Shown here piece by piece: positions 12,400-59,498 of a DNA stretch of 64,000 nucleotides. Each line of letters starts with the position of its first letter. Within the stretch, counting starts at the first letter, position 1. Origin of the DNA: an uncultured Candidatus Bathyarchaeia archaeon (lineage in GTDB: Archaea > Thermoproteota > Bathyarchaeia > Bathyarchaeales > Bathycorpusculaceae); NCBI GenBank assembly GCA_964598485.1, contig CAZRCD010000004.1, positions 47,516 through 111,515 on the forward strand, in the 5' to 3' direction. The notes beneath the pieces are model-generated. The model was given only the letters and a program-made list of their open reading frames with translations. It was not told the origin of the DNA and did not search any database. A program made the position numbers and the translations under genes.

Positions 12400-13941
12400 C
12401 TACAAATTCTGCTCAGTTTTCTTCAGATACATTCGCCAACTCAAAGCCATAGTTCTCGGATGCGAAGCCTTCACCTCATCCAGCCTTGAAACAGCAGTGT
12501 TATGCGGCGCCTTCAGAACCACTTCTGGGTTTGTGTACGCTTCTTTACAGATTTCCCGCATAGCCTCAACGAAACGGTCAAGCTCTTCCTTCTCAAACGT
12601 TTCCGTAGGCTCAATCATCAACGCTTCATCAACGATGAGCGGAAAATAAATCGTTGGTGCATGCAACCCATAATCGAGCAGACGCTTAGCAACATTCAAA
12701 GCTGAAACACCAGTTTCACCCTTTAAAGGCTTGGCACTTAAAACACACTCATGCTTCCTCGGTTTTTCACCGCCATAAGGAAGCGTCAATCCCTTAATTC
12801 CCTCAAGCTTCTTAGCCAAATAGTTCGCGTTCAAAACAGAAACTTCCGCCACTTCCTTCAACCCTTCAAAACCCAAACTCAAAATGTAAGCATAAGCCTT
12901 CAACAAAACAGCCACATTCCCATAAAAACTCCTCATCTTACCAATAGTGTGAGGCATATCATAGTCTAAGTGATAGCGTTCTCCATCGAAAACTATGCGT
13001 GGAACAGGCAAAAACTTAGCCAAATCCTCGGAAACACCAACAGGACCAGCTCCTGGACCTCCTCCACCATGAGGAGTGCCAAACGTTTTATGAATGTTCA
13101 TGTGAACTATGTCGAACCCCATGTCACCGGGCCTAGCCTTACCAAGTATAGCATTCAAGTTCGCCCCATCATAGTAGAGCAGTCCACCAGCCTCATGAAC
13201 AATTCTGGCTATTTCCTCAATGTTTTTCTCAAAGATTCCAAGAGTGTTAGGGTTTGTAAGCATCAGGCCTGCTGTGCATTCAGAAACAGCAGCCTTCAAC
13301 GCTTCAATACTCACGCAGCCATCCTCATCTGATGGAACAACCACAACGTTAAATCCAGCCATAGCCGCACTTGCAGGATTGGTGCCGTGAGCAGAATCTG
13401 GCACAATAATTTCCCTCCTCTTTTCAATTTCCCCATTCAACTTATGATGAGCACGCATAAGTGATGTACCCAAGAATTCACCGTGGGCGCCTGCGGCAGG
13501 CTGCAGACAAACCTCGTGAGTGCCAGTGATTTCTGCAAGCCATCTCTCGAGCCTGTAAAGAATTCCCAATATGCCCTGCACAGTGCCTTCATCCTGATAC
13601 GGATGCACCATGTTTATCGCTGGCAGGTTCGCAAGCAACTCGTTTATTTTCGGATTATACTTCATGGTGCAGCTTCCAAGCGGATACAAGCCAGAATCAA
13701 CACCATAATTCATTTGAGATAAGCGTGTGAAATGCCTTACAGCCTCAACCTCTGAAAGCTCCGGAAGCTTAGGCTGACTTTTACGCTGCATGTTCTCTGG
13801 AATAAGCATGTTCACATCGCCAACAATTCGTTTAATTTTTTCTTCGACTTTCGGAGAAACGTGTCCTCTCCGTCCCTTCCTTCCAAGACTGAAGATCAAC
13901 CGCTCATTCCAGTTTGCCTGCTTAAACATAACGCTTTTCAC
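12400..13941 (-). CDS. gcvPB: Glycine dehydrogenase (decarboxylating) subunit 2, P-protein C-terminal half
   Basis: A 513 aa PLP-dependent protein with the HMNIHKTFGTPHGGGGPGAGPV motif. It overlaps the upstream gcvPA by 20 nt. Confidence 0.9.
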   Translation of the reverse strand: MKSVMFKQANWNERLIFSLGRKGRRGHVSPKVEEKIKRIVGDVNMLIPENMQRKSQPKLPELSEVEAVRHFTRLSQMNYGVDSGLYPLGSCTMKYNPKINELLANLPAINMVHPYQDEGTVQGILGILYRLERWLAEITGTHEVCLQPAAGAHGEFLGTSLMRAHHKLNGEIEKRREIIVPDSAHGTNPASAAMAGFNVVVVPSDEDGCVSIEALKAAVSECTAGLMLTNPNTLGIFEKNIEEIARIVHEAGGLLYYDGANLNAILGKARPGDMGFDIVHMNIHKTFGTPHGGGGPGAGPVGVSEDLAKFLPVPRIVFDGERYHLDYDMPHTIGKMRSFYGNVAVLLKAYAYILSLGFEGLKEVAEVSVLNANYLAKKLEGIKGLTLPYGGEKPRKHECVLSAKPLKGETGVSALNVAKRLLDYGLHAPTIYFPLIVDEALMIEPTETFEKEELDRFVEAMREICKEAYTNPEVVLKAPHNTAVSRLDEVKASHPRTMALSWRMYLKKTEQNL

Positions 13942-15388
13942 CTCCAGCCAAAATCTCCTCTAAAACTGTTGCCAGACGTTCAATCTCCTCTTCAGAATGG
14001 ATTTCAGTCACACAGTAGAGGGCTGTTTTGCCTAGCTCTGGAAACTCCTTTGAAAGGTCTTTGCCACCGTGAATCCCACGCTCTAAAAGTTTTTTATGCA
14101 AATCTTTAACGCTTAGACCTGTTCCGTCAAAGTTTACAGTGAATTCCTTGAAATGGGTTGATTTGAAAGCTGGAGCTTTAACCCCATCGATTTTCGAAAG
14201 CAAATGAATAGCATAATTTGCCTTGCGCATTATTGTCTCGCCGAGTTCTCGTAATCCTTCGGGTCCAAGCAGAGCCATGTAAACAGCTGATGCTACAGCA
14301 CATAAAGCTTCGTTTGTGCACACGTTTGATGTTGCTTTTTCACGCCTAATATGTTGTTCACGGGTTTGTAAAGCCATGCAAAAACCTTGTCTATTACCAT
14401 CCAATGTTGTAGTCATCCCGATTATGCGTCCAGGCATTTGCCTAATCACCCTTAAATCATCACGACAAGCAAAAATCCCCAAAAGAGGCCCGCCGAAATT
14501 CATTGCGTTGCCAAGAGGTTGAGCCTCGCCAACCACAATATCTGCATCATAATCACCCGGAGGTTTCAAAATTCCAAGGGAAGTTGGGTCAACGCCAACA
14601 ATGAAAAGTGCTCCATGCGCATGTGCCCCTCTACTTATTTCATCAACTTGTGTTTCAACAAAGCCTAAATACGATGGATTTTCAATGTAGACCGCTGCTG
14701 TTCTGTCTGAAATCTTATTCCTGAAATCCTCTGCGTTTATTTGCCCAGTCTCCTTGTTGTAGGCCACTTGTTTGATTGATATTCCGGCTGGTTCAGCATA
14801 AACCCGTAATGTAGCCAATCTTTCAGGGTGAACAATTTTAGGAACCAAAATTTCGTTCCGCCTTGTTAATCTAGCTGCCATGCGAGAGGCTTCACCTAAG
14901 GCTGAAGCCCAATCATACAAGGAGCAATTGGCAACTTCCATACCTGTTAACTCGCAAATCATGCTCTGATATTCAAAAAGGGCTTGAAGCATACCCTGCG
15001 AAATTTCAGGCTGATAAGGCGTGTAAGAAGTAAGCAGCTCACTGCGTTGAACGATTTCCTTTACAACCGCCGGAACATAATGAGGCCAGCAACTTGCACC
15101 CAAAAACACTGGCATGTCACTGCATGTCTTGTTTTTTGAAAGCAAACCCTCCACATGCTTCTTAACCTCAAACTCTGACAAAGCTTCTGGAAGTTTTAAC
15201 GGCTTTTTTAAACGATATTTCTCTGGAATATCCGCGTACAATTCATCGATGCTTTCTGTGCCTATTTCTCGCATCATTTCTTTCTTGATTTCTGGCAGAG
15301 AATTTGGAATGTATGGATGACTGCGTTTGATCAAGAGATTCACCGTTAGAATTAACACTAAATCAGCACTGACTTTAAGCTTTTTCAA
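13922..15388 (-). CDS. gcvPA: Glycine dehydrogenase (decarboxylating) subunit 1, P-protein N-terminal half
   Basis: Has HPYIPNS… near the N-terminus and the overall P-protein alpha architecture. The annotated start adds a hydrophobic extension of about 22 aa (MKKLKVSADLVLILTVNLLIKRS), so the start is uncertain. Confidence 0.85.
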   Translation of the reverse strand: MKKLKVSADLVLILTVNLLIKRSHPYIPNSLPEIKKEMMREIGTESIDELYADIPEKYRLKKPLKLPEALSEFEVKKHVEGLLSKNKTCSDMPVFLGASCWPHYVPAVVKEIVQRSELLTSYTPYQPEISQGMLQALFEYQSMICELTGMEVANCSLYDWASALGEASRMAARLTRRNEILVPKIVHPERLATLRVYAEPAGISIKQVAYNKETGQINAEDFRNKISDRTAAVYIENPSYLGFVETQVDEISRGAHAHGALFIVGVDPTSLGILKPPGDYDADIVVGEAQPLGNAMNFGGPLLGIFACRDDLRVIRQMPGRIIGMTTTLDGNRQGFCMALQTREQHIRREKATSNVCTNEALCAVASAVYMALLGPEGLRELGETIMRKANYAIHLLSKIDGVKAPAFKSTHFKEFTVNFDGTGLSVKDLHKKLLERGIHGGKDLSKEFPELGKTALYCVTEIHSEEEIERLATVLEEILAGGEKRYV

Positions 15389-16170
15389 ACATTATTGAAT
15401 TCTGGGGCTTCAGAAAGAGCCTCTAGGACAGCTTCTAGAAGAATTCTTGCGTTTTCCCTAACCTGCTGGTGTCCGAAGGCTTGCAGCCATCCAGTTTCGC
15501 TTAAAACGTCTGAAACAACTTGTGCCGAAGCTGCCTCAACATTCCTATATTTGGCAACTGCAAAAATCGCTGAAGTTTCCATATTCACAGCCAAAACACC
15601 GCTGTCCCTAAACTTGAAGAATTTTTTGCGCGTTTCTCTATAAACTCCGTCAGTAGACCAGACAGAACCAACGAAATGCTTGATTTTCCCTTCATTCAAA
15701 CGCTTAATCAGCTTGCTTCTCAATTTTGGAGAAGACTCAACCTTCACGTTTGGTGGAAGGTAATGGTGAGAGGTTCCTTCGTCACGAATCGCCTCTGTTA
15801 CAACAATTATGTTGCTTGGTTGAAGGAAAGTCTGCAAACCTCCAGACGCGCCAACTTCAAGAATTGTTTTTGCACCGCACGCAATTAGTTCTTCCAATGT
15901 CATAACAGCCGCTGGTGCGCCTACCCAGAAGCGTCCAAGCCCAATTTCCACATGGTTGAATCGTCCGATGCAAAATGGTTGGCTTTCGCCATACATCCAC
16001 CAGTCAACGGACTTGCCATCAATTAGCTTCTTCCCATATTCATACGTACGTCTCTGATAAGTGATCAAAAGGCGTTGAGGAACTTTTATGGTGTCCACTG
16101 GAACTTTTCTGTTTTCAGCTACATAGCGGACAAAATCGAGTGGTGTGAATATGGCTTCGTCTTCGCTCAC
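15385..16170 (-). CDS. Nucleoside phosphorylase family I (PNP/UDP/MTAP-like)
   Basis: The VNMETSA motif and the GASGGL phosphate loop characteristic of PNP_UDP_1. It overlaps gcvPA by 4 nt. Confidence 0.65.
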   Translation of the reverse strand: MSEDEAIFTPLDFVRYVAENRKVPVDTIKVPQRLLITYQRRTYEYGKKLIDGKSVDWWMYGESQPFCIGRFNHVEIGLGRFWVGAPAAVMTLEELIACGAKTILEVGASGGLQTFLQPSNIIVVTEAIRDEGTSHHYLPPNVKVESSPKLRSKLIKRLNEGKIKHFVGSVWSTDGVYRETRKKFFKFRDSGVLAVNMETSAIFAVAKYRNVEAASAQVVSDVLSETGWLQAFGHQQVRENARILLEAVLEALSEAPEFNNV

Positions 16171-20035: not shown

Positions 20036-21829
20036 CTAGCTTTTTTCTGGAGGCGTCTCATCATTCTCGATCCAGCTGAACTTCCTCTGGAGGGCTTTCG
20101 AGTAGTACTGTTTCCAGTCGTAGTCCACTTGTTTTCCCCATTTATAGTAGATTCGGGGGTCAATGTAGCTCTTCAGAGACGTCCCAAGGTTGTAGTCGCG
20201 GGTTTCCTTCTGAGCCTCTATCCTAAGCTTCAGCTTAGCTATCGCCGCTTTGTCACGTTGCATCCGACTCTCCAGCCTCTGCCCTAACTTTTTCATTCGC
20301 TCTTCATACTTGAGCTTCAGCAGCTTGAGGCGTTGCTTTTGCCGAGTCACTGCCTTTCGATCAAAGCTAATACGTCTCTTCAAAGCGCGTGCGGATTTAC
20401 CTTGTTGTTTCTCCTCGGCGAGTTGTTGTCGATGAGCATCCAGCTTTGCCTGCATATCCTTCAGTCTTTCCTCTTGCTCCCGCAGTCTCTCACTATCTTT
20501 CTCTTTCCAATAGTCGATTTTCTGCCTCAACTTATCTTCAGCATCCTTCGCTCGATTCTTCAAAGCCTTGAGGCGATCCTTCTTCCTTTCTAAAGATGAT
20601 TTCCAAGTCTTACGGATGGTACGCCTGTGATTGCAGACTTTTGCAGCCTCAAGGTTTGCCATCGTAGCAGTGTGTTTCTTCACATATTCAGGGTCTTCAA
20701 GTTTGACAGGAGCCTTTTCCAAGTTCGTCTCGACAGTTTCGGACGCATAGCAAGTACGAAAAACCTTTGCCGACAGCCCAGCCATCACCTCATCAAGGAA
20801 TTCGCTAACATGCTGTGAGCGGACGCCATCAAAAAGGGTGGACCTCGCGTTCGCTGCGAACTCCTTAAGGTTTCTAGTGACATTATTTGGGAGTTCAACC
20901 TTGAAGACATGAGGCACAGAATCCTTCCCGAGGAAGTTGAACGTTACACTCTCATCACTGTTGAAATGGATATGCTTCGGTCGGAGGGTTGAGGCGCCAA
21001 CTGTGTCCGCCTCGTCAGGATCCTTCTCGTCGCCAACCCTGATTTTCAACCTATCAATAAGGAAACAAACGGTCGCCGTTTTCCTCCGTCTCAGATCATC
21101 AGCGTTAAGGTTCTCCCAGATGTGCTTCCGTACCCCTGCAAGGTTCCGTCGAAGCTTCCTAGCTTTTTCAAACTTCTCAATATCCTTCCTCTGCTTCACG
21201 ATGCTGGAGTCGGAAAACCAGACGTATTTCGTCTTGCCCGTAAGTTTATCCCGCCATCGTGCAATCCACATGGAGTCAGGCTGCCAGACAATCTTCCAGT
21301 TGCCCCGCGGCCTAGGCGCATCCGGCGAGAGGTTGAGTTCGACATCCTCCTCGCAAGCCCCCTCCTTCCAGCATCCCCTCAACGGGTGTTTGCCTCGACC
21401 TATGAAGATGGAACTAGGTTCGACGGCGTAGTTGGCCACCTCCACCCGGGCACCGTCAACCCAAGCAAATCCGTAGCGATCCTTGTTCGCAGCTCTCTGA
21501 GCTTTCCTCTGAGCCGTCAGTTGCTTTCTCTCCTTTCTAGAGAGGTTTGCTTTCCAAGCCCGCTCCTTTTCGATTGTAGAGAGAACATCGGAGTAGTCAA
21601 CATCGCCGGGCTTGACATTGATACCGAGTTTTTTTGAGAAGTCCCGGTGAAAGTTCTTGGCGAAGACAGGGTCCTCGACGTAAGGGGTTCCAACTTTTTT
21701 AGCCCAAGCGAAAGCCATTTCCTCCTGCATTGGTGTCAGCTTAATCTTCTTCCCCTTCACCTGTATAGTGAAACCTTTTCCTTCGTATCGATGTGGAATT
21801 AGGACGCCGTTGTGGTGTAGCTGCTTCAT
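20036..21829 (-). CDS. top1: Eukaryotic-type DNA topoisomerase IB
   Basis: A core VFRTCYASETV (compare eukaryotic KVFRTYNAS), ADTVGASTLRPKHI (compare TVGCCSLRVEHI), a long coiled-coil linker, and the C-terminal catalytic-Tyr motif LGTSLKSYIDPRI (compare LGTSKLNYLDPRI). Confidence 0.9.
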   Translation of the reverse strand: MKQLHHNGVLIPHRYEGKGFTIQVKGKKIKLTPMQEEMAFAWAKKVGTPYVEDPVFAKNFHRDFSKKLGINVKPGDVDYSDVLSTIEKERAWKANLSRKERKQLTAQRKAQRAANKDRYGFAWVDGARVEVANYAVEPSSIFIGRGKHPLRGCWKEGACEEDVELNLSPDAPRPRGNWKIVWQPDSMWIARWRDKLTGKTKYVWFSDSSIVKQRKDIEKFEKARKLRRNLAGVRKHIWENLNADDLRRRKTATVCFLIDRLKIRVGDEKDPDEADTVGASTLRPKHIHFNSDESVTFNFLGKDSVPHVFKVELPNNVTRNLKEFAANARSTLFDGVRSQHVSEFLDEVMAGLSAKVFRTCYASETVETNLEKAPVKLEDPEYVKKHTATMANLEAAKVCNHRRTIRKTWKSSLERKKDRLKALKNRAKDAEDKLRQKIDYWKEKDSERLREQEERLKDMQAKLDAHRQQLAEEKQQGKSARALKRRISFDRKAVTRQKQRLKLLKLKYEERMKKLGQRLESRMQRDKAAIAKLKLRIEAQKETRDYNLGTSLKSYIDPRIYYKWGKQVDYDWKQYYSKALQRKFSWIENDETPPEKS

Positions 21830-52625: not shown

Positions 52626-53411
52626 TCAGGCTTTAGGCTTTGTTGCCTTGCGTGCAAACGTTATGTAGCCAGTATGCCCAGTCATCAAAGTGTGAGGGCG
52701 TGTTCTTCCTCTTTCAGTTTGCATTCCACGCATTAGGCATTCAATGGTTTCGATGTCTACAAAGCTGTTGTCTTTCAAGGCTTCAACTGTTTTCACAATC
52801 TGGTCCATTGTTGGACTGAACGAAACTATTGTTCCGCAAGGCTTCAGGGCGGAGTAAGCGTGTGGAACAACAAGCCAAGGAGTTGCTAAATCCAATATAA
52901 TTGCGTCAACGTCACTTTCGTCTATGCCAACTGTCACGTCCTTATTCTTCAATACGACAAAATCAATTAAGCCTGCACGCTTCAGGTTTTTCTTTGCAGT
53001 CTCAAGGAATTCTTCCCTTAATTCGTAGCTGTAGACTCTGCCATCCGGCTTAATATAATGAGCTAGAGCTGTTGTTAGCGCACCCGTGCCTGTTCCAGCT
53101 TCTACCAAGCAACTTCCTGGACCTATTCCGCTGAACATAATCATTAGAGCCACGTCCTTCGGGTAGGTTATCTGAGTTTTACGCGTAGATTTGAAAATGT
53201 AATCACGCAGTAAAGGTTTTAACGCTACGAACTCGATTCCTAAGTTGCTTAAAACTCTGACGCCGTATTCTTTTCCGATTATGTCGTCGAATTTTATGAA
53301 GCCTTTATGTGTGTGGAAGGTTTTGCCCTTTTCAACTTTAACGAGGTACGTTTTCCGTCGGCTTAAGTGAAGGAGCACATAGTCGCCTTCCGTTATTTTT
53401 TGAGTTGCCAA
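52626..53411 (-). CDS. trmI: tRNA (adenine57/58-N1)-methyltransferase TrmI
   Basis: GCD14/TrmI architecture with an N-terminal beta-barrel and a SAM-binding motif (VEAGTGTGALTTALA), followed by DLATPW. Confidence 0.75.
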   Translation of the reverse strand: MATQKITEGDYVLLHLSRRKTYLVKVEKGKTFHTHKGFIKFDDIIGKEYGVRVLSNLGIEFVALKPLLRDYIFKSTRKTQITYPKDVALMIMFSGIGPGSCLVEAGTGTGALTTALAHYIKPDGRVYSYELREEFLETAKKNLKRAGLIDFVVLKNKDVTVGIDESDVDAIILDLATPWLVVPHAYSALKPCGTIVSFSPTMDQIVKTVEALKDNSFVDIETIECLMRGMQTERGRTRPHTLMTGHTGYITFARKATKPKA

Positions 53412-53420
53412 CTTCAGTCA

Positions 53421-54899
53421 CTAAGGTGTGTATTTGAACGGGTGTTTTGACCTATCCTTGTTCTCTATTAATTCGTCTATTGTAGGTCTTCCTTCTATTG
53501 CCCTGCGGATGGCGTGGCGCATAGCTTTGTAATTGTTTATGTATACTCTTTGTCTGTCAACTGCCGTTGGATGAACGAACACGTTAGTGATGATTATCAG
53601 ATCTTCAGCAGCCTCTTTAGGAATCATTCCATCTGCAACGCTGTCAATGATTGCCTTTGCCACTGCTGTTTGTGCAGGACCATAAACCATGCTTGCTTGG
53701 CGCATACTCCTAATCGTAACCGTTGGAACTATCAAGGTTACAGGTTTAACCGCTAGATTTGGTTCCAAAATGGCTAGTAATGGTTCATGTCCAGATGTCG
53801 GTGTAGATTTAGCCTTTGCGAAGGCTTCGCCCAGAGGTCCATCTTTCTTCCCGATAAGCAAGTCTATGTGGGCTACTTCTGCACCTTGTCCCGCTAGGGC
53901 TTCCCCTACACGCAAGTTGAAGTCTCGTATGATTTCCGGTGTTACGTCAATTGCTTTGAAACGTTCTTCTACGGGTTTTTCGCCGATTTCAAATGTTATG
54001 GTTTTTGGCTTTATCTTCCCTGTCTTCTCTAGTTCTATTCGCAGTTCCTCCCTCGCCTCGTATGTTAGTTCTCCGCCTACGCTCAGCGGCCTTCTAACTG
54101 GTCCAACTTTGATTTTCATCATGTTTAGGGCTGCCTTGGTTCCTACGGCTCCGCTTCCAGCGATGATGCGAGCCATTTTCTGAATTTTATATTGCAGTTC
54201 ACGGGCTTTCTGCAGTTCCCCATTCTTCACGTGATTATAAATTTGAACCCAAATGTCTGGTATCACATTCGCACTTGCAAGAATTGCTCCTGAGCATCCA
54301 GCAGCTAGTGCTGCAACAACGACTTCGTCGTGTCCACACATGACGTTGATTTTGTCGCGTACCTTCTCCAAGACGGCAAGAATGTAACTTAGTTGTCCGC
54401 TGCTGTCTTTCAAACCGACAATGTTTGGGATTTGAGCCAAGTCTTCAACCATCTGCCAAGAAAGTTGAACGCCTGTGCATTGTGGGATATTGTAAAGAAT
54501 TATCGGCAAGTCCACTTCACTTGCAATCGTATGGTAGTGTTGGTAAATGCCACGGTCTTTAGGTTTTAAGTAAAAAGGTGTAACAATTAAGGCTGCATCT
54601 GCACCTGCATCCTTCGCGTATTTCGTCATTTCCAAAGCTTGATCTGTTCCACTAGCCCCTGTACCTACCACCACTGAAACTTTGCCGTTGACTTCGTCCA
54701 TAACTACGTCAATAACCTTTTTTTTCTCTTCTGTTGTCAAGTTCACAAACTCGCCCGTTGTGCCGCATGGAACAACCCCGTAAACGCCTAACTCGATGCA
54801 ATGGCTAACCAAAGCTCGCAGTCTTTCCTCATCTACCGCCTTTCCGTCGTCCGTGAAAGGAGTAACCAAAGCTGGCAAAATTCCCTCAGGTTTAAACAT
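53421..54899 (-). CDS. Fusion protein with an N-terminal dihydrodipicolinate-synthase-family class I aldolase and a C-terminal formaldehyde-activating-enzyme (Fae) domain
   Basis: The N-terminal roughly 300 aa carry the DHDPS-family signatures GTTGEF, TPFYLKP and the Schiff-base Lys motif GLKDSSG. The C-terminal roughly 170 aa align with Fae (VGEALAGQGAEVAHIDLLIG…LLAILEPNLAVKPVTLIVP…MVYGPAQTAVAKAIIDSVADGMIP…HPFKY). Confidence 0.7.
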   Translation of the reverse strand: MFKPEGILPALVTPFTDDGKAVDEERLRALVSHCIELGVYGVVPCGTTGEFVNLTTEEKKKVIDVVMDEVNGKVSVVVGTGASGTDQALEMTKYAKDAGADAALIVTPFYLKPKDRGIYQHYHTIASEVDLPIILYNIPQCTGVQLSWQMVEDLAQIPNIVGLKDSSGQLSYILAVLEKVRDKINVMCGHDEVVVAALAAGCSGAILASANVIPDIWVQIYNHVKNGELQKARELQYKIQKMARIIAGSGAVGTKAALNMMKIKVGPVRRPLSVGGELTYEAREELRIELEKTGKIKPKTITFEIGEKPVEERFKAIDVTPEIIRDFNLRVGEALAGQGAEVAHIDLLIGKKDGPLGEAFAKAKSTPTSGHEPLLAILEPNLAVKPVTLIVPTVTIRSMRQASMVYGPAQTAVAKAIIDSVADGMIPKEAAEDLIIITNVFVHPTAVDRQRVYINNYKAMRHAIRRAIEGRPTIDELIENKDRSKHPFKYTP

Positions 54900-55368
54900 G
54901 CTTTTCCCGCCTTTTAGTTAACCATATCTCTTGTATCATTTAAGTTTTGATTTCGAAAATTTCACGGAGGACTAGAATGGTTTGCCAATTCGGGTTGTTC
55001 TGGCTGTCTTCAAGGTGGAGGAATGCCAACTTGCTAAGTTAGGAATTGTTGTATAAAAAAGGGTTTGAAAAACTGTTATTTTTGCAAAGATTTTCTGAAC
55101 TGTGAAAAACTCAGTTATCAAAAAGAAACCTACAGAATTGATGAAAATTACAGAAGGATAAAACAGATTGGCTATGAGAACTGGCTGGAAGAACAAGAAG
55201 AAAAGCGGAGACAAAATTTTGACAACATCCACTTCTTGAAAAATAGGAAAATCGTCCGTTAGCTATGCTGTTTCCCAAATTGAGTGAGCATCATCTGAAC
55301 TTCTTAAATTTCTGAAAAACGCTTAAATCACCTAACACTCCAATACAAATATCCGGGAGGACAGTTTA

Positions 55369-56661
55369 GTGAGTGCCGTTAGAGAAAGATTAAGAATCAA
55401 AGAGGAAAATCTGAAGCAGATCAATAATTTTCTTCTGAGAGAAGATAACCCTCTTATAAATGGCTTACTAGAAATCGTTGAGAAATATGGCGGCGTTGAC
55501 GAGATCAACCGCAAAGCCAGAGAAGCCCGTAAACTCGAAAACCTCATGGAAAGACTTAGGAGAAACAATTCACCTTATGTGAAGGATCTTGAATGGCTGA
55601 TTGAACAAAGGGATAATGGAGCGTTTATCAACATCCTAGAATATCGCAGAAAAATTTTGGGATATAAGGCTAGTTCCATGAAGTTTGATGATTCTTTTGC
55701 GGTAACTCTTGAAATTAGTGCATGTAACTTCTTCCCGTGGCTTATCGAAGAGGCGAAAAAAACCATTGAACAGCAGAATCTTATGCCCGCCCGTTACATT
55801 CGAGTCCGATCTATGAAAGAACAAGTTGAAGACGATCACATTCTCGCTTTTGCAGCAGCCATGCAGATCATAGGTGCTTCCTACGTGGAAACGTTAGATA
55901 CAAAAGGAACAATGCCTGGACCTGATGGTCAGCCCATTAACGTTCATTTGGGCGGACCAGAAACCATCACGGGTTATTTCGGAGGAGTAGGAGTGCCGAA
56001 CGAATACGCTTTGAAGTGGGTTGACGAATTCCTTTATTACTATACTGAATATGGCATTCGACAAGTTTTGAATGTGAACATAGGTACTGTGATGCTTGGG
56101 TATTGGCTTCACAAACTTGGAATTGACTTGGAATTTAAGATTTCAGTTTATCTTGGTAATGACAATCCTTATGCGTGTTTTTGGACATTGATGACTGCGA
56201 AACTCTTTAGCCGAGATGATGGGACAACACCTCTCATAGGCTTTAACCTCTCAAATGCCGTCAACAATGAGACCATTGAGTTGTCAGCTTATATACGGAA
56301 AGACTTTGGCTTCGAAGACATTGTACGCATCGAACATCACATCGTGGAAACCTACAAGAGCATTGTGAGACAACCATACAACAGACTCGACGAACTTGTG
56401 GAAATAGCAGACCATGTGAAAAACGTCAGTGCTAAACATGAAGGTGCTTTCCCAGAGATTGAGGCAACTCGAGAGCATCCTTCGGATATTTTGGAATACT
56501 TCATTCCAAAAAAAGACATAGTTGCACAAGGATTGATGCCAAAGCTCCTAATCAACTACCTTGATAAACATGATTCGGTGAACAGAACAGCCAGAGCCCT
56601 CACGGAACGAGGCTTAACCTTTATTGCAGCTCAGAACTTGCACAGAAATAGTACTTTTTAG
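55369..56661 (+). CDS. Hypothetical conserved-looking 430 aa protein
   Basis: A long ORF with uniform composition and no motif recognised here. It is divergently oriented to the DHDPS-Fae fusion gene. Confidence 0.4.
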   Translation: MSAVRERLRIKEENLKQINNFLLREDNPLINGLLEIVEKYGGVDEINRKAREARKLENLMERLRRNNSPYVKDLEWLIEQRDNGAFINILEYRRKILGYKASSMKFDDSFAVTLEISACNFFPWLIEEAKKTIEQQNLMPARYIRVRSMKEQVEDDHILAFAAAMQIIGASYVETLDTKGTMPGPDGQPINVHLGGPETITGYFGGVGVPNEYALKWVDEFLYYYTEYGIRQVLNVNIGTVMLGYWLHKLGIDLEFKISVYLGNDNPYACFWTLMTAKLFSRDDGTTPLIGFNLSNAVNNETIELSAYIRKDFGFEDIVRIEHHIVETYKSIVRQPYNRLDELVEIADHVKNVSAKHEGAFPEIEATREHPSDILEYFIPKKDIVAQGLMPKLLINYLDKHDSVNRTARALTERGLTFIAAQNLHRNSTF

Positions 56662-56709: not shown

Positions 56710-57534
56710 CTACCAATATTGTTTAGGTTTCCGCATCATCAGGTAGATTGTTGTAGCTACAAAGCAAACAGTTGTTATCGCTAGAACAATCGCCACGTTT
56801 GTCGTAGTGTCAAGTCCGCCTATACTGCCTTTAAGATCCCAGTAAGTTTGATTCAGGGAAGTGTAGTTTTGATGAAGCTCCCAGAAAGTCTGGTTTAAGA
56901 GAACAAAGTTTTCTGCGGTGAGGTTCATTTGGAAACTTTCCCAAAAAGCTTGGTAAAGCTGCTCAAAAGTGCTGTTTAATCCCCAATAAGTGTTATTTAA
57001 CTGTTGATAGCTTTCGTTCAAATTTTTAAGTGTGTTTTCAAGTTCTTCCAAATAGACATTTCTAACGATGGTAATCGAGAAATTCGGGTTATATTCAAAA
57101 GGCGAGTCTACAATGGCATATCGGAGATGTAGTTCAGCGTAGGTTGCATCCCAAACATCATTGGGTATGTGCACCGTACAGTTATATGGGTATGTATGAT
57201 TGAAGACTAGGGGAATGTTTTCCATTACATATGTAGAATGCAGCGGAGGTTCAGTCTTTTCTTGACCACATCTGAAACCGTAAACTTTGAGGGTGAGGTA
57301 ATCCATGTTAACACCGTCGGCTGTACAATTAATCCACAAATTAATTGTTATATTTTCGCCGGGCGTCGTCTCTTGTGTAGCACTGAATTTGATTGAAATC
57401 CCAGCATAGCTTTTGGAGAAGAAGGTTTGCATCTCGTCCGAAGTTGGTGCTGTGGCGTTTTGAATAAGTGCTAGTGTAAGAATTAGCATAACGGAAATTG
57501 TTGTTAGAGTTTTTAATTTCTTCAATACTTTCAC
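56710..57534 (-). CDS. Membrane-anchored extracellular glycoprotein candidate with tandem N-glycosylation-sequon heptad repeats
   Basis: A signal peptide and a C-terminal TM anchor. There are 14 or more NxS/T sequons, and the C-terminal region consists of roughly 7-residue repeats: NESYQQL, NNTYWGL, NSTFEQL, NQTFWEL, NYTSL and NQTYWDL. Confidence 0.5.
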   Translation of the reverse strand: MKVLKKLKTLTTISVMLILTLALIQNATAPTSDEMQTFFSKSYAGISIKFSATQETTPGENITINLWINCTADGVNMDYLTLKVYGFRCGQEKTEPPLHSTYVMENIPLVFNHTYPYNCTVHIPNDVWDATYAELHLRYAIVDSPFEYNPNFSITIVRNVYLEELENTLKNLNESYQQLNNTYWGLNSTFEQLYQAFWESFQMNLTAENFVLLNQTFWELHQNYTSLNQTYWDLKGSIGGLDTTTNVAIVLAITTVCFVATTIYLMMRKPKQYW

Positions 57535-57717: not shown

Positions 57718-57987
57718 TTATTTGATTGAGCGGATGAAGCGTTGGTACATGTAGATGAAGTATATGAGGGCGAAGGCAGTTAAGCCGATTTCGAATGTCA
57801 AGATGGCTGGATTGTTTTCGACAGCCATGAAATATCCATGTTGCAATATGTCAGTGAAGACTAGGATCTGGAGGAATATTGCTCCGCCTAGACAGCTTAA
57901 GCCTAAGCTGTGAAGCAGCAATCGTATTCGGCGGTCATGCGTTGTAGTTTTCATTATTATCGTGAATAGCAAGATGCAATACGTCAA
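57718..57987 (-). CDS. Small membrane protein
   Basis: Three hydrophobic helices in 89 aa. Confidence 0.3.
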   Translation of the reverse strand: MTYCILLFTIIMKTTTHDRRIRLLLHSLGLSCLGGAIFLQILVFTDILQHGYFMAVENNPAILTFEIGLTAFALIYFIYMYQRFIRSIK

Positions 57988-58138: not shown

Positions 58139-59498
58139 CTATACTCCAACCATATATCCCTTATCTTTCTCAACAAGCACGGTTTCGCTTTTCAAATCTT
58201 CCATGAACTTGGCGAATAAATCTGCATGTTCCGTATGAACAGGAAAAACCTTACGTGCGTTGATCTCTCCTAAAATATTTTTCAGTTGAAGCGGCATTAT
58301 ATGTCCAGAAACGTGCACATGATACTGCGGCAACCCATAATGCCTAAGCCAATTAACCAGCCTCTCAAAGTCAATCTCCATCTCCTCATTGAACGGCTCA
58401 GAAGCAGACAAAACATAGCAGCTGCCCGCTTTCGGGTTGATTTCCACAAGCTCCTCCAAATCGTAAAAAGACATGGCTAAAACTATTTCCCGTTGTCGCT
58501 TCGAAACTTCGAACACATCAACAATTTTGTCTGAATACTCCTCTATAATTTGTTTTTCCCATTTGCGATATTTTTTCTTCGATTTTCGAAATATTAATAA
58601 ACTTTCATCACCCAAGCTTGGAACCTTCAAGTGTTTATCCTTGCGCAACGCTTTCAATATGTAAGCCTGTCTAAGTGAAACAGCAAGACGTCGCCCATTC
58701 TTCTTGGCTGTTCGATAAAAAGAATTCAACCTGTCAACATCAGCATAAGCAAAATCAGCAAGCACCAAACCGCTTGTCTGCCCAACAATAATACTTAACT
58801 TGTTTTTGACTTCTGCTTCGGAAGAAATTGATGCACCAGTCATGTTCGTAGCTTCGGTGACAACCGCAACTGGGTCTGCTTCTTTTGCCTTTTCAACAAA
58901 ATCAGACGTCATCTCAGGCTTCGTTCCATGAGCCCTAAAATCTCCAGTATAAACAACAGCGCCATTAGAAGTATGAATAATGAAGCCATAGGCTCCTGGA
59001 ACAGAATGATCAACATGAACTAGCTCAATCTCTAAACCATCCACAGTAATCGAGTCTCCTGTTCTAAAAGACGTAAACAATACGTCTTTAACGTCAAACT
59101 CCAACGCGGTAGCACGCATTTCACCGCGCCTGCAAAATAATCTTCGTTGTCTCTCCACAGTACACTGGAATTTCACGGTTTATGAAAGATATGTAAGCTG
59201 AGTGATCCATATGGGCGTGCGAAAGGAAAACAGCATCAACTTCTGCAGTCTTATCATCAAACCTGTAAAAGCCTTCAAGTTTCGGCAGAATTCCAAGCTC
59301 TTGCAAGCTTTTTTCGCTTCTAGGCGAAAGGAAAGGCAACGAATAATACTGCTTTTTCAAAGCAAAGGACATGCCAAAATCCAAGAAGATTTTTGTGCCT
59401 CTGTCTTGCAGTAGAATTTTGTTTCCGCCAATCTCATCTACTCCACCATAAAACGTCAACGAAGTGTTTAGCTTCACCAATTCATACACCAACGACAA
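58139..59498 (-). pseudogene. Beta-CASP/metallo-beta-lactamase RNase (RNase J / aCPSF-like) interrupted by a frameshift
   Basis: The N-terminal ORF (59498→59121) carries the MBL motif HAHMDHS. The C-terminal ORF (59176→58139, GTG start) carries the beta-CASP region. The two overlap by 56 nt in different frames around the A-rich tract tgcaaaataatc. Confidence 0.6.

Follow-up and report, generated by a model that had tools for sequence, protein, structure and literature searches.

A conserved archaeal fusion of a DapA-like aldolase with a formaldehyde-activating enzyme, and the uncharacterised family encoded beside it

The 64,000-nucleotide stretch of DNA analysed here (the window), from an uncultured Candidatus Bathyarchaeia archaeon of the Bathycorpusculaceae (assembly GCA_964598485.1, contig CAZRCD010000004.1, positions 47,516 to 111,515 of the forward strand), encodes on its minus strand, at 53421..54899, a polypeptide of 492 amino acids (aa) in which a class I aldolase of the DHDPS/N-acetylneuraminate lyase family is followed by a linker and a formaldehyde-activating enzyme (Fae) domain. 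The fusion is probably a bifunctional enzyme other than the lysine-pathway DapA under whose name it is filed, and its linkage to a divergently transcribed gene for a 430-aa protein strongly supports a joint function of the two. We tentatively propose, at somewhat less than an even chance, that the fusion couples its two halves in the reaction 2-oxo acid + methylene-tetrahydromethanopterin (methylene-H4MPT) + H2O ⇌ 4-hydroxy-2-oxo acid + H4MPT. No description of a DHDPS/DapA-Fae fusion was found in a full-text literature search.

The reading frame opens with ATG, closes with TAG and runs through 492 codons without interruption; neither a stop nor a frameshift is present in the region around residue 300. 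The co-occurrence of both domains in one polypeptide, read from the letters alone in an initial annotation of this DNA, was confirmed by profile searches. Pfam places DHDPS (PF00701) at aa 4-289 (54033..54890, minus strand; E 1.9e-81, 273 bits against a cut-off of 22.1, profile positions 2-285 of 289) and Fae (PF08714) at aa 331-488 (53436..53909, minus strand; E 5.1e-64, 215.5 bits against a cut-off of 27, profile positions 1-158 of 159). NCBIfam agrees, with dapA (TIGR00674) scoring 251.2 bits over an equivalog cut-off of 206.15 and one_C_fae (TIGR03126) scoring 223.9 bits over a cut-off of 118.05. The gap between the two Pfam envelopes is a linker of ~40 residues (aa 290-330; 53910..54032, minus strand), in which alignment reveals a segment of the form (I/T)P..I..F.L..GE that is kept across lineages. 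The motifs quoted in the initial annotation (GTTGEF, TPFYLKP, GLKDSSG, AHIDLLIG, PNLAVKPVTL, GPAQTAVAKAI and HPFKY) are all found in the translation.

A search of 5.8 billion proteins, with matches grouped as 90%-identity clusters, recovered more than 120 separate clusters from JGI, ENA, NCBI and Logan assemblies that are 87-98% identical to the query and contain both Pfam domains in every case; where they carry a name, it is '4-hydroxy-tetrahydrodipicolinate synthase [Candidatus Bathyarchaeota/Bathyarchaeia]'. When one genome per prokaryotic species was scanned, relatives were found in 178 genomes. Among the best 80 of these 178, to which the locus counts given below refer, identity to the query is 78-98%, all proteins are full length except two ended by contig edges, and nearly all sources are Bathyarchaeia metagenome-assembled genomes (MAGs). 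Identity of this order in the best 80 species representatives indicates strong purifying selection on the fusion. Closed genomes with the fusion include OY970072.1, CP070679.1 and CP070754.1. HMMER, run exhaustively over 1.84 billion 50%-identity representatives, added ~15 fused clusters, 36-56% identical to the query, labelled Lokiarchaeota/Promethearchaeota, Hod-, Heimdall- and Thorarchaeota, and Korarchaeota/Thermoproteota; one further label, 'Anaerolineae bacterium', was treated with caution. The phyletic spread of the fusion thus takes in Bathyarchaeia together with divergent Asgard and Korarchaeota-labelled members. Bathyarchaeia and Asgard fused proteins share 56% identity and, as judged from these sequences, the fusion is older than the split between the two groups and has persisted since. 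Bacterial labels were also met on records bearing the fusion or its partner (L075, L080 and clusters P0124/P0287 and P0544, labelled Acidiferrales, Krumholzibacteriaceae, Anaerolineae and Nanopelagicaceae); gene order in L075 and L080 is Bathyarchaeia-like, and the labels are for that reason probably binning errors.

The closest solved structures to the aldolase half are all DapAs, the best being M. jannaschii DapA (2yxg, E 1e-57). E. coli DapA, whose sequence was checked to be identical to 1dhp, served as the residue ruler and is 31% identical to the aldolase domain. Against this ruler, T47, T48, Y110, Y136, K164 and G189 of the query correspond to T44, T45, Y107, Y133, K161 and G186, and all six are invariant among the aligned Bathyarchaeia homologues; the Schiff-base and pyruvate residues (T47, T48, Y136 and K164) and Y110 are also retained in nearly all of the divergent fused proteins. 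The alignment bears out the family residues, the GTTGE motif for the pyruvate carboxylate included, and the Schiff-base lysine claimed in the initial annotation, the latter predicted to be Lys164 (codon at 54408..54410, minus strand).

The Fae half aligns to residues 6-166 of the 169 residues of M. extorquens Fae (1y5y) with 43% identity. Kept in it are EVAHIDL (with H344 and D346 equivalent to His22 and Asp24 of M. extorquens Fae), the EPNL loop, GPAQ and the C-terminal HPF tail, of which we take the EVAHIDL, PNL, GPAQ and HPF motifs to belong to the Fae active site, and the domain has the look of an intact catalyst. Fae is a pentamer that binds H4MPT between neighbouring subunits, and the five chains in each of the PDB entries 1y5y and 1y60 are consistent with a pentamer. 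An H4MPT-dependent Wood-Ljungdahl pathway has been inferred for most Bathyarchaeia in published work.

What is conserved in the Fae half can be read from six lineages in which two fused genes stand in tandem, always in the order B then A, the two genes overlapping by up to 22 nt or standing up to 18 nt apart. These are L084/85 (L084:8528-11479), L086/87 (L086:8715-11398; labelled Korarchaeota), L088 (L088:8544-11449), L089 (L089:2061-3727), L093 (L093:6589-9485) and L094 (L094:8001-10876; labelled Thorarchaeota). Type A, the downstream copy, keeps AH(I/V)DL and the C-terminal RHPFRY-P tail and is without EPNL and GPxQ in seven of seven cases. Type B, the upstream copy, is without AHIDL and the tail in all nine cases and keeps EPNL in eight of them and GPxQ in six. 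Single-copy proteins, found in Bathyarchaeia and most Asgard archaea, have all four motifs in six of the seven scored, AH(I/V)DL having been missed by the motif scan in L080. In a rough neighbour-joining tree, type B forms one clade, and type A and the single-copy genes form another. Because the motifs are complementary and the Fae site is inter-subunit, we infer that A and B form a hetero-oligomer whose hetero-interface would rebuild one complete Fae site, the AHIDL/HPF face of A being predicted to contact the EPNL/GPxQ face of B, and the complementary loss points to Fae catalysis, and to the inter-subunit site itself, as what selection preserves. Half-sites divided in this way would clearly illustrate how an active site shared between subunits can become subfunctionalised in nature. 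The L093 pair adjoins a GHMP kinase gene; homoserine kinase and pantoate kinase were considered for it and rejected, the enzyme being mevalonate kinase.

Alternatively, Fae could be the sole function that matters, the protein being the Fae of the cell and trapping for example the formaldehyde from reverse ribulose monophosphate pentose synthesis or from methoxy-aromatic breakdown, with the DapA-like domain serving mainly to bind a ligand or as a scaffold for oligomerisation or regulation. A canonical Fae half fits this alternative, and papers on Bathyarchaeia already count the gene as 'fae' for formaldehyde detoxification. In L088, moreover, both paralogues have lost the Schiff-base lysine and the Thr-Thr pair (Lys161 and Thr44/45 of E. 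coli DapA) with their complementary Fae motifs retained; because the lysine is gone from both, aldolase chemistry is dispensable in that lineage, and so is not indispensable everywhere. All lineages examined other than L088, however, retain T44, T45, Y133, K161 and G186, with no variation among Bathyarchaeia, which would be unexpected for a scaffold, and the aldolase domain is conserved as much as the Fae domain. We regard a purely Fae-dependent role as distinctly unlikely.

The residues around the aldehyde pocket tell a different story from those around the Schiff base. Where solved DapAs read YNVPsRTg, the query reads YNIPQCTG, placing Cys141 (codon at 54477..54479, minus strand) at the position of Arg138. 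None of the fused proteins examined has Arg there, the residue being C, V, L, T, A or Y. Arg138 of E. coli DapA binds the carboxylate of aspartate semialdehyde, is essential for that binding and is conserved in DapAs. Relative to E. coli DapA, Asp187 is also replaced by His, Asn248 by Gly and Ser-Val-Thr 204-206 by Leu-Ala-Ser, and the query has 'GHDE' where DapA has 'GDD/GND'. Since the residue that binds aspartate semialdehyde is gone from every fused protein examined, the aldolase half is probably not a DapA despite its annotation, and we read it as a putative pyruvate-type Schiff-base aldolase, derived from DapA, whose aldehyde pocket has been rebuilt. A role for Cys141 itself in catalysis or in relaying formaldehyde was considered and rejected, because the position varies among lineages and a catalytic residue would be invariant.

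A genuine DapA, serving lysine synthesis and fused to Fae without chemical coupling, would explain why DapAs (EC 4.3.3.7) are the closest overall relatives and the top solved ones, with the same fold family and the same Thr-Thr/Tyr133/Lys161/Tyr107 set, why the TIGR00674 score of 251 bits exceeds the cut-off of 206, and why all database annotations read DapA. Unlike DapA, the query is without Arg138, is altered at Asp187, Asn248 and Ser-Val-Thr 204-206, and carries a C-terminal Fae domain. Nor has the fusion been seen beside genes of the diaminopimelate pathway in any locus examined: dapB, asd and lysA are absent from the called neighbours (within 6-10 kb) in every lineage examined. Together with the long retention of the fusion and the complementary A/B pairs, which argue for a coupled function, these differences leave the lysine-pathway explanation a poor chance. 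Other members of the DHDPS family, namely N-acetylneuraminate lyase, KD(P)G aldolase and the HpaI-like enzymes of TIGR02313, are likewise without Arg138 and cleave 4-hydroxy-2-oxo acids to pyruvate and an aldehyde. The query, in contrast, falls far under the cut-offs for such enzymes (172.6 bits against 382 for nanA, 189 against 281 for NF003164, 133.6 against 390 for Arch_KDGaldase and 220.7 against 396.7 for TIGR02313), and none of their models includes Fae.

The gene for the 430-aa protein lies at 55369..56661 on the plus strand, divergent from the fusion. The initial annotation had named it as a candidate partner, and both the existence of this open reading frame and its candidacy held up. 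In Bathyarchaeia the gene order is TrmI, fusion, divergent 430-aa gene, 274-aa gene and 89-aa gene, the four genes other than the fusion being present in 75, 71, 55 and 55 of the 80 loci, respectively. In the Asgard contigs L082, L083, L090, L091 and L095, the fused gene is preceded on its own strand by a homologue of the 430-aa gene, the two being separated by a gap of 18-35 nt in four of the five contigs and by two inserted genes in L091. In L089 the homologue is 80% identical and shares one strand with a NUDIX gene, a fused gene of type B and the first part of a fused gene of type A, in that order. Three distinct arrangements thus tie the 430-aa gene to the fusion, with family members at L082:8683-9966, L089:1-1275, L090:8001-9287, L091:8001-9284 and L095:6001-7287, and it is the only recurrent partner across the lineages examined. 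Because the linkage survives changes of orientation and of phylum, it is strongly supported that the two proteins work together, and this linkage is the strongest evidence for it.

The 430-aa protein itself has no relative in Pfam (77 members searched at E values up to 5), NCBIfam or the PDB sequences by profile searches. Its annotation is always hypothetical. Bathyarchaeia and Asgard members are 64-69% identical, the L082 homologue reaching 67% over 425 residues, and the family is large, with at least 8000 candidates scored per search and every one of them significant. An AlphaFold2 model built on a shallow alignment of Bathyarchaeia only had a predicted local distance difference test (pLDDT) score of 49 and was discarded; the addition of Asgard sequences raised the pLDDT to 77, with a predicted template-modelling score (pTM) of 0.83. 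In the resulting model, a helical domain at the N-terminus leads into a TIM-barrel-like fold. A Gly-rich loop at residues 178-210 (DTKGTxPGPDGxPxNVHLGGPxTITGYFGG) is modelled with low confidence yet is highly conserved, and the invariant residues E115, R145, D177, H193, K257, E322-H323-H324 and K356-H357-E358 lie at or near predicted strand ends. From the model we infer that the protein is an enzyme, possibly a metal-dependent one.

Two genes seen beside tandem pairs could suggest a pterin- or H4MPT-related substrate in place of formaldehyde, as in the synthesis or repair of a methanopterin-type cofactor, with the Fae-like domain as the pterin-binding part. The NUDIX gene of L089, which separates the fused pair from the TIM-barrel gene, has dihydroneopterin-triphosphate diphosphatase as its sole NCBIfam match, and in L088 an archaeal riboflavin pyrimidine reductase gene lies 20 nt upstream of the fused pair on the same strand. 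The NUDIX match, however, is far under its cut-off (58 against 103 bits), each association was seen once, and the score of the Fae domain is that of an equivalog-level Fae. Enzymes of the DHDPS family require a 2-oxo acid for their chemistry, and none is involved in the methanopterin steps that we know of, which also counts against a pterin role; its chances are slim. That two genes were joined by a sequencing or assembly error, in favour of which nothing was found, is refuted, with negligible doubt, by the continuous frame and by the recurrence of the 492-aa architecture in more than 120 clusters, in species-representative genomes and in hundreds of independent assemblies from several archaeal phyla.

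In the coupled reaction that we propose, the aldolase domain would bind pyruvate, or another small 2-oxo acid like it, and activate it as an enamine at Lys164, and the pocket rebuilt by the changes Arg138 to Cys, Asp187 to His and Asn248 to Gly (E. coli DapA numbering) would receive an aldehyde that is presumably formaldehyde. The Fae domain would interconvert formaldehyde plus H4MPT and methylene-H4MPT, and formaldehyde would be handed from site to site without accumulating. With pyruvate, the product would be 4-hydroxy-2-oxobutanoate (HOB); the architecture of the protein suggests such a channelled reaction of pyruvate with formaldehyde. The TIM-barrel partner would then probably make or consume the 4-hydroxy-2-oxo acid.

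A natural precedent for the fusion of Fae to a formaldehyde-releasing aldolase exists in Fae-Hps, the methanogen enzyme that combines Fae with 3-hexulose-6-phosphate synthase (NF009833) and in which the aldolase releases formaldehyde and Fae traps it. That Fae-Hps is the known archaeal Fae fusion, as the initial annotation had it, was borne out, and the query matches just the Fae part of that model (positions 2-161 of 392, 188.5 bits against a cut-off of 274). The two systems would have in common a Fae domain covalently joined to a formaldehyde-making or formaldehyde-using aldolase in H4MPT-using archaea, and the presumed logic of keeping toxic formaldehyde bound to H4MPT. Their domain order is reversed, Fae being C-terminal in the query, and their aldolases are of different kinds: a class I, lysine Schiff-base TIM barrel of the DHDPS family in the query, whereas Hps is metal-dependent and belongs to the orotidine monophosphate decarboxylase family. 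The proposed co-substrate is correspondingly a 2-oxo acid instead of ribulose 5-phosphate. Searches of the window and of 95 related loci (1.3 Mb) turned up no sequence resembling Hps and, apart from the tandem pairs, no second DHDPS or Fae gene.

In its proposed net chemistry, the fusion would resemble ketopantoate hydroxymethyltransferase, PanB (EC 2.1.2.11), whose 2-oxo-acid substrate receives its hydroxymethyl group from a methylene-pterin: in both, a 2-oxo-acid carbanion and the formaldehyde unit of a methylene-pterin would give a 4-hydroxy-2-oxo acid. There is no sequence relationship between the two, and PanB is a single-domain, metal-dependent enzyme that uses methylene-tetrahydrofolate and 2-oxoisovalerate, unlike the query with its Schiff-base aldolase and separate H4MPT domain. 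The simplest reaction available to the fusion, pyruvate + formaldehyde to HOB, is a step of the synthetic homoserine cycle, where it is carried out by promiscuous E. coli RhmA/YfaU (PMC8879981). In contrast to the reaction proposed here, RhmA is a class II enzyme acting on free formaldehyde in an engineered pathway, and the review of that cycle describes no natural dedicated H4MPT-linked enzyme for HOB (PMC8879981).

Several observations weigh against a coupled reaction. The aldolase half is closest overall to genuine DapAs and scores above the DapA equivalog cut-off, and residue 141 varies among lineages (C, V, L, T, A, Y), so that it is not catalytic. The L088 paralogues are without the Schiff-base lysine and the Thr-Thr pair and still retain their Fae half-sites. 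The oligomeric symmetries of the two families differ, Fae being a pentamer and DHDPS a dimer or tetramer, so that simple channelling is not guaranteed; a conceivable assembly is a decamer in which five tight DHDPS dimers link two pentameric Fae rings. Finally, HOB has been called a non-native metabolite, known solely from a synthetic pathway (PMC8879981). A more specific reading, in which the fusion and its TIM-barrel partner constitute a natural H4MPT-dependent 2-oxo-acid hydroxymethyltransferase system joining the methyl branch of the archaeal Wood-Ljungdahl pathway directly to C3/C5 2-oxo acids, is bolder and in our estimate rather unlikely.

The divergent intergenic region between the fusion and the 430-aa gene (54900..55368) contains a TTAAAT-like box upstream of the fused gene, and an ATTTAAG box and GGAGG upstream of the 430-aa gene; the boxes are candidate promoters. 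The region measures 470-600 nt in the closest relatives (L001:1180-1779; L002:4361-4933) and ~80-170 nt in many other Bathyarchaeia loci. About 100 nt are conserved at each end, and the middle differs between close relatives by insertions.

On the other side of the fusion, 9 nt downstream on the same strand, lies a gene for a TrmI/GCD14-type tRNA m1A methyltransferase (52626..53411, minus strand; Pfam PF08704 and PF14801) that is probably co-transcribed with it. TrmI is not a neighbour of the fusion in the Asgard and other non-Bathyarchaeia lineages examined and, because the linkage is confined to Bathyarchaeia, we treat it as lineage synteny and not as a functional partner. Beyond the 430-aa gene, a 274-aa protein (56710-57534, minus strand) has a signal- or anchor-like N-terminus, a C-terminal transmembrane helix, repeated N-x-S/T sequons (LNxTYW-like) and a weak match to the C-terminal part of S-layer SlaB (E 1e-4); it diverges fast (23-67% identity in the 55 loci that have it). 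Next to it, an 89-aa predicted membrane protein of no family (57718-57987, minus strand) is 63-94% identical in its 55 Bathyarchaeia loci. Two MAGs, JAVZNC01 (L013, L028) and JAVZLM01 (L007, L034), contain the whole block from TrmI to the 89-aa gene twice, on different contigs and at ~86-88% identity to the query, a pattern that seems better explained by two strains in one bin than by genuine paralogues.

In the Asgard stretches L082:1-6873, L083 and L090:1-6360, genes for formylmethanofuran-dehydrogenase-like subunits (Molybdopterin, Molydop_binding, polyferredoxin) are found ~2-8 kb from the 430-aa/fusion pair, as is a 2-oxoacid:ferredoxin oxidoreductase pair; the Asgard 430-aa/fusion pair is flanked by UDP-glucose 6-dehydrogenase and peroxiredoxin.

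Elsewhere in the window, another system that generates one-carbon units is encoded at 12400-15388 on the minus strand by the glycine-cleavage P protein subunits, GcvPB-like at 12400-13941 and GcvPA-like at 13922-15388, and the GcvPA-like gene is followed by one of the purine/uridine phosphorylase family (15385-16170). At 20036-21829 (minus strand), the archaeal window carries a eukaryotic-type DNA topoisomerase IB (Topoisom_I_N, Topoisom_I and Topo_C_assoc, E values down to 2e-61). An RNase J-like beta-CASP/metallo-beta-lactamase protein of 345 aa (58139-59176, minus strand) begins at model position 117 of 546; the start of the called frame may be wrong, or the protein may be short at its N-terminus. 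A Pfam match to the PA domain had no passing stretch and was ignored.

Both domains of the fusion are of known kinds and the joining of Fae to an aldolase has precedent; the partner family is genuinely uncharacterised, and its linkage to the fusion provides the first functional handle on a 430-aa family for which no model exists. In current metabolic reconstructions, the fused gene is read either as DapA, for lysine synthesis, or as a free-standing fae, for formaldehyde detoxification. Of these, the DapA reading is probably mistaken and the fae reading gives only part of the picture; the fusion probably marks a connection, not previously described, of one-carbon metabolism with that of 2-oxo acids. 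These readings matter for the Bathyarchaeia and Asgard archaea, which are among the most abundant subsurface microbes and are two of the most abundant archaeal groups of sediments, and whose carbon metabolism has been inferred almost wholly from annotation. If the two halves are chemically coupled, the fusion would be a new entry or exit point between H4MPT-bound one-carbon units and 2-oxo acids and, to our knowledge, the second natural type of Fae-aldolase fusion after Fae-Hps. Should the hydroxymethyltransferase reading hold, pyruvate and methylene-H4MPT could yield 4-hydroxy-2-oxobutanoate as a precursor of homoserine, threonine or methionine, giving the synthetic homoserine cycle a counterpart in nature, or 2-oxoisovalerate could yield ketopantoate, an H4MPT-type replacement of PanB in coenzyme A synthesis; either would constitute a previously unknown central reaction in Bathyarchaeia and Asgard archaea.

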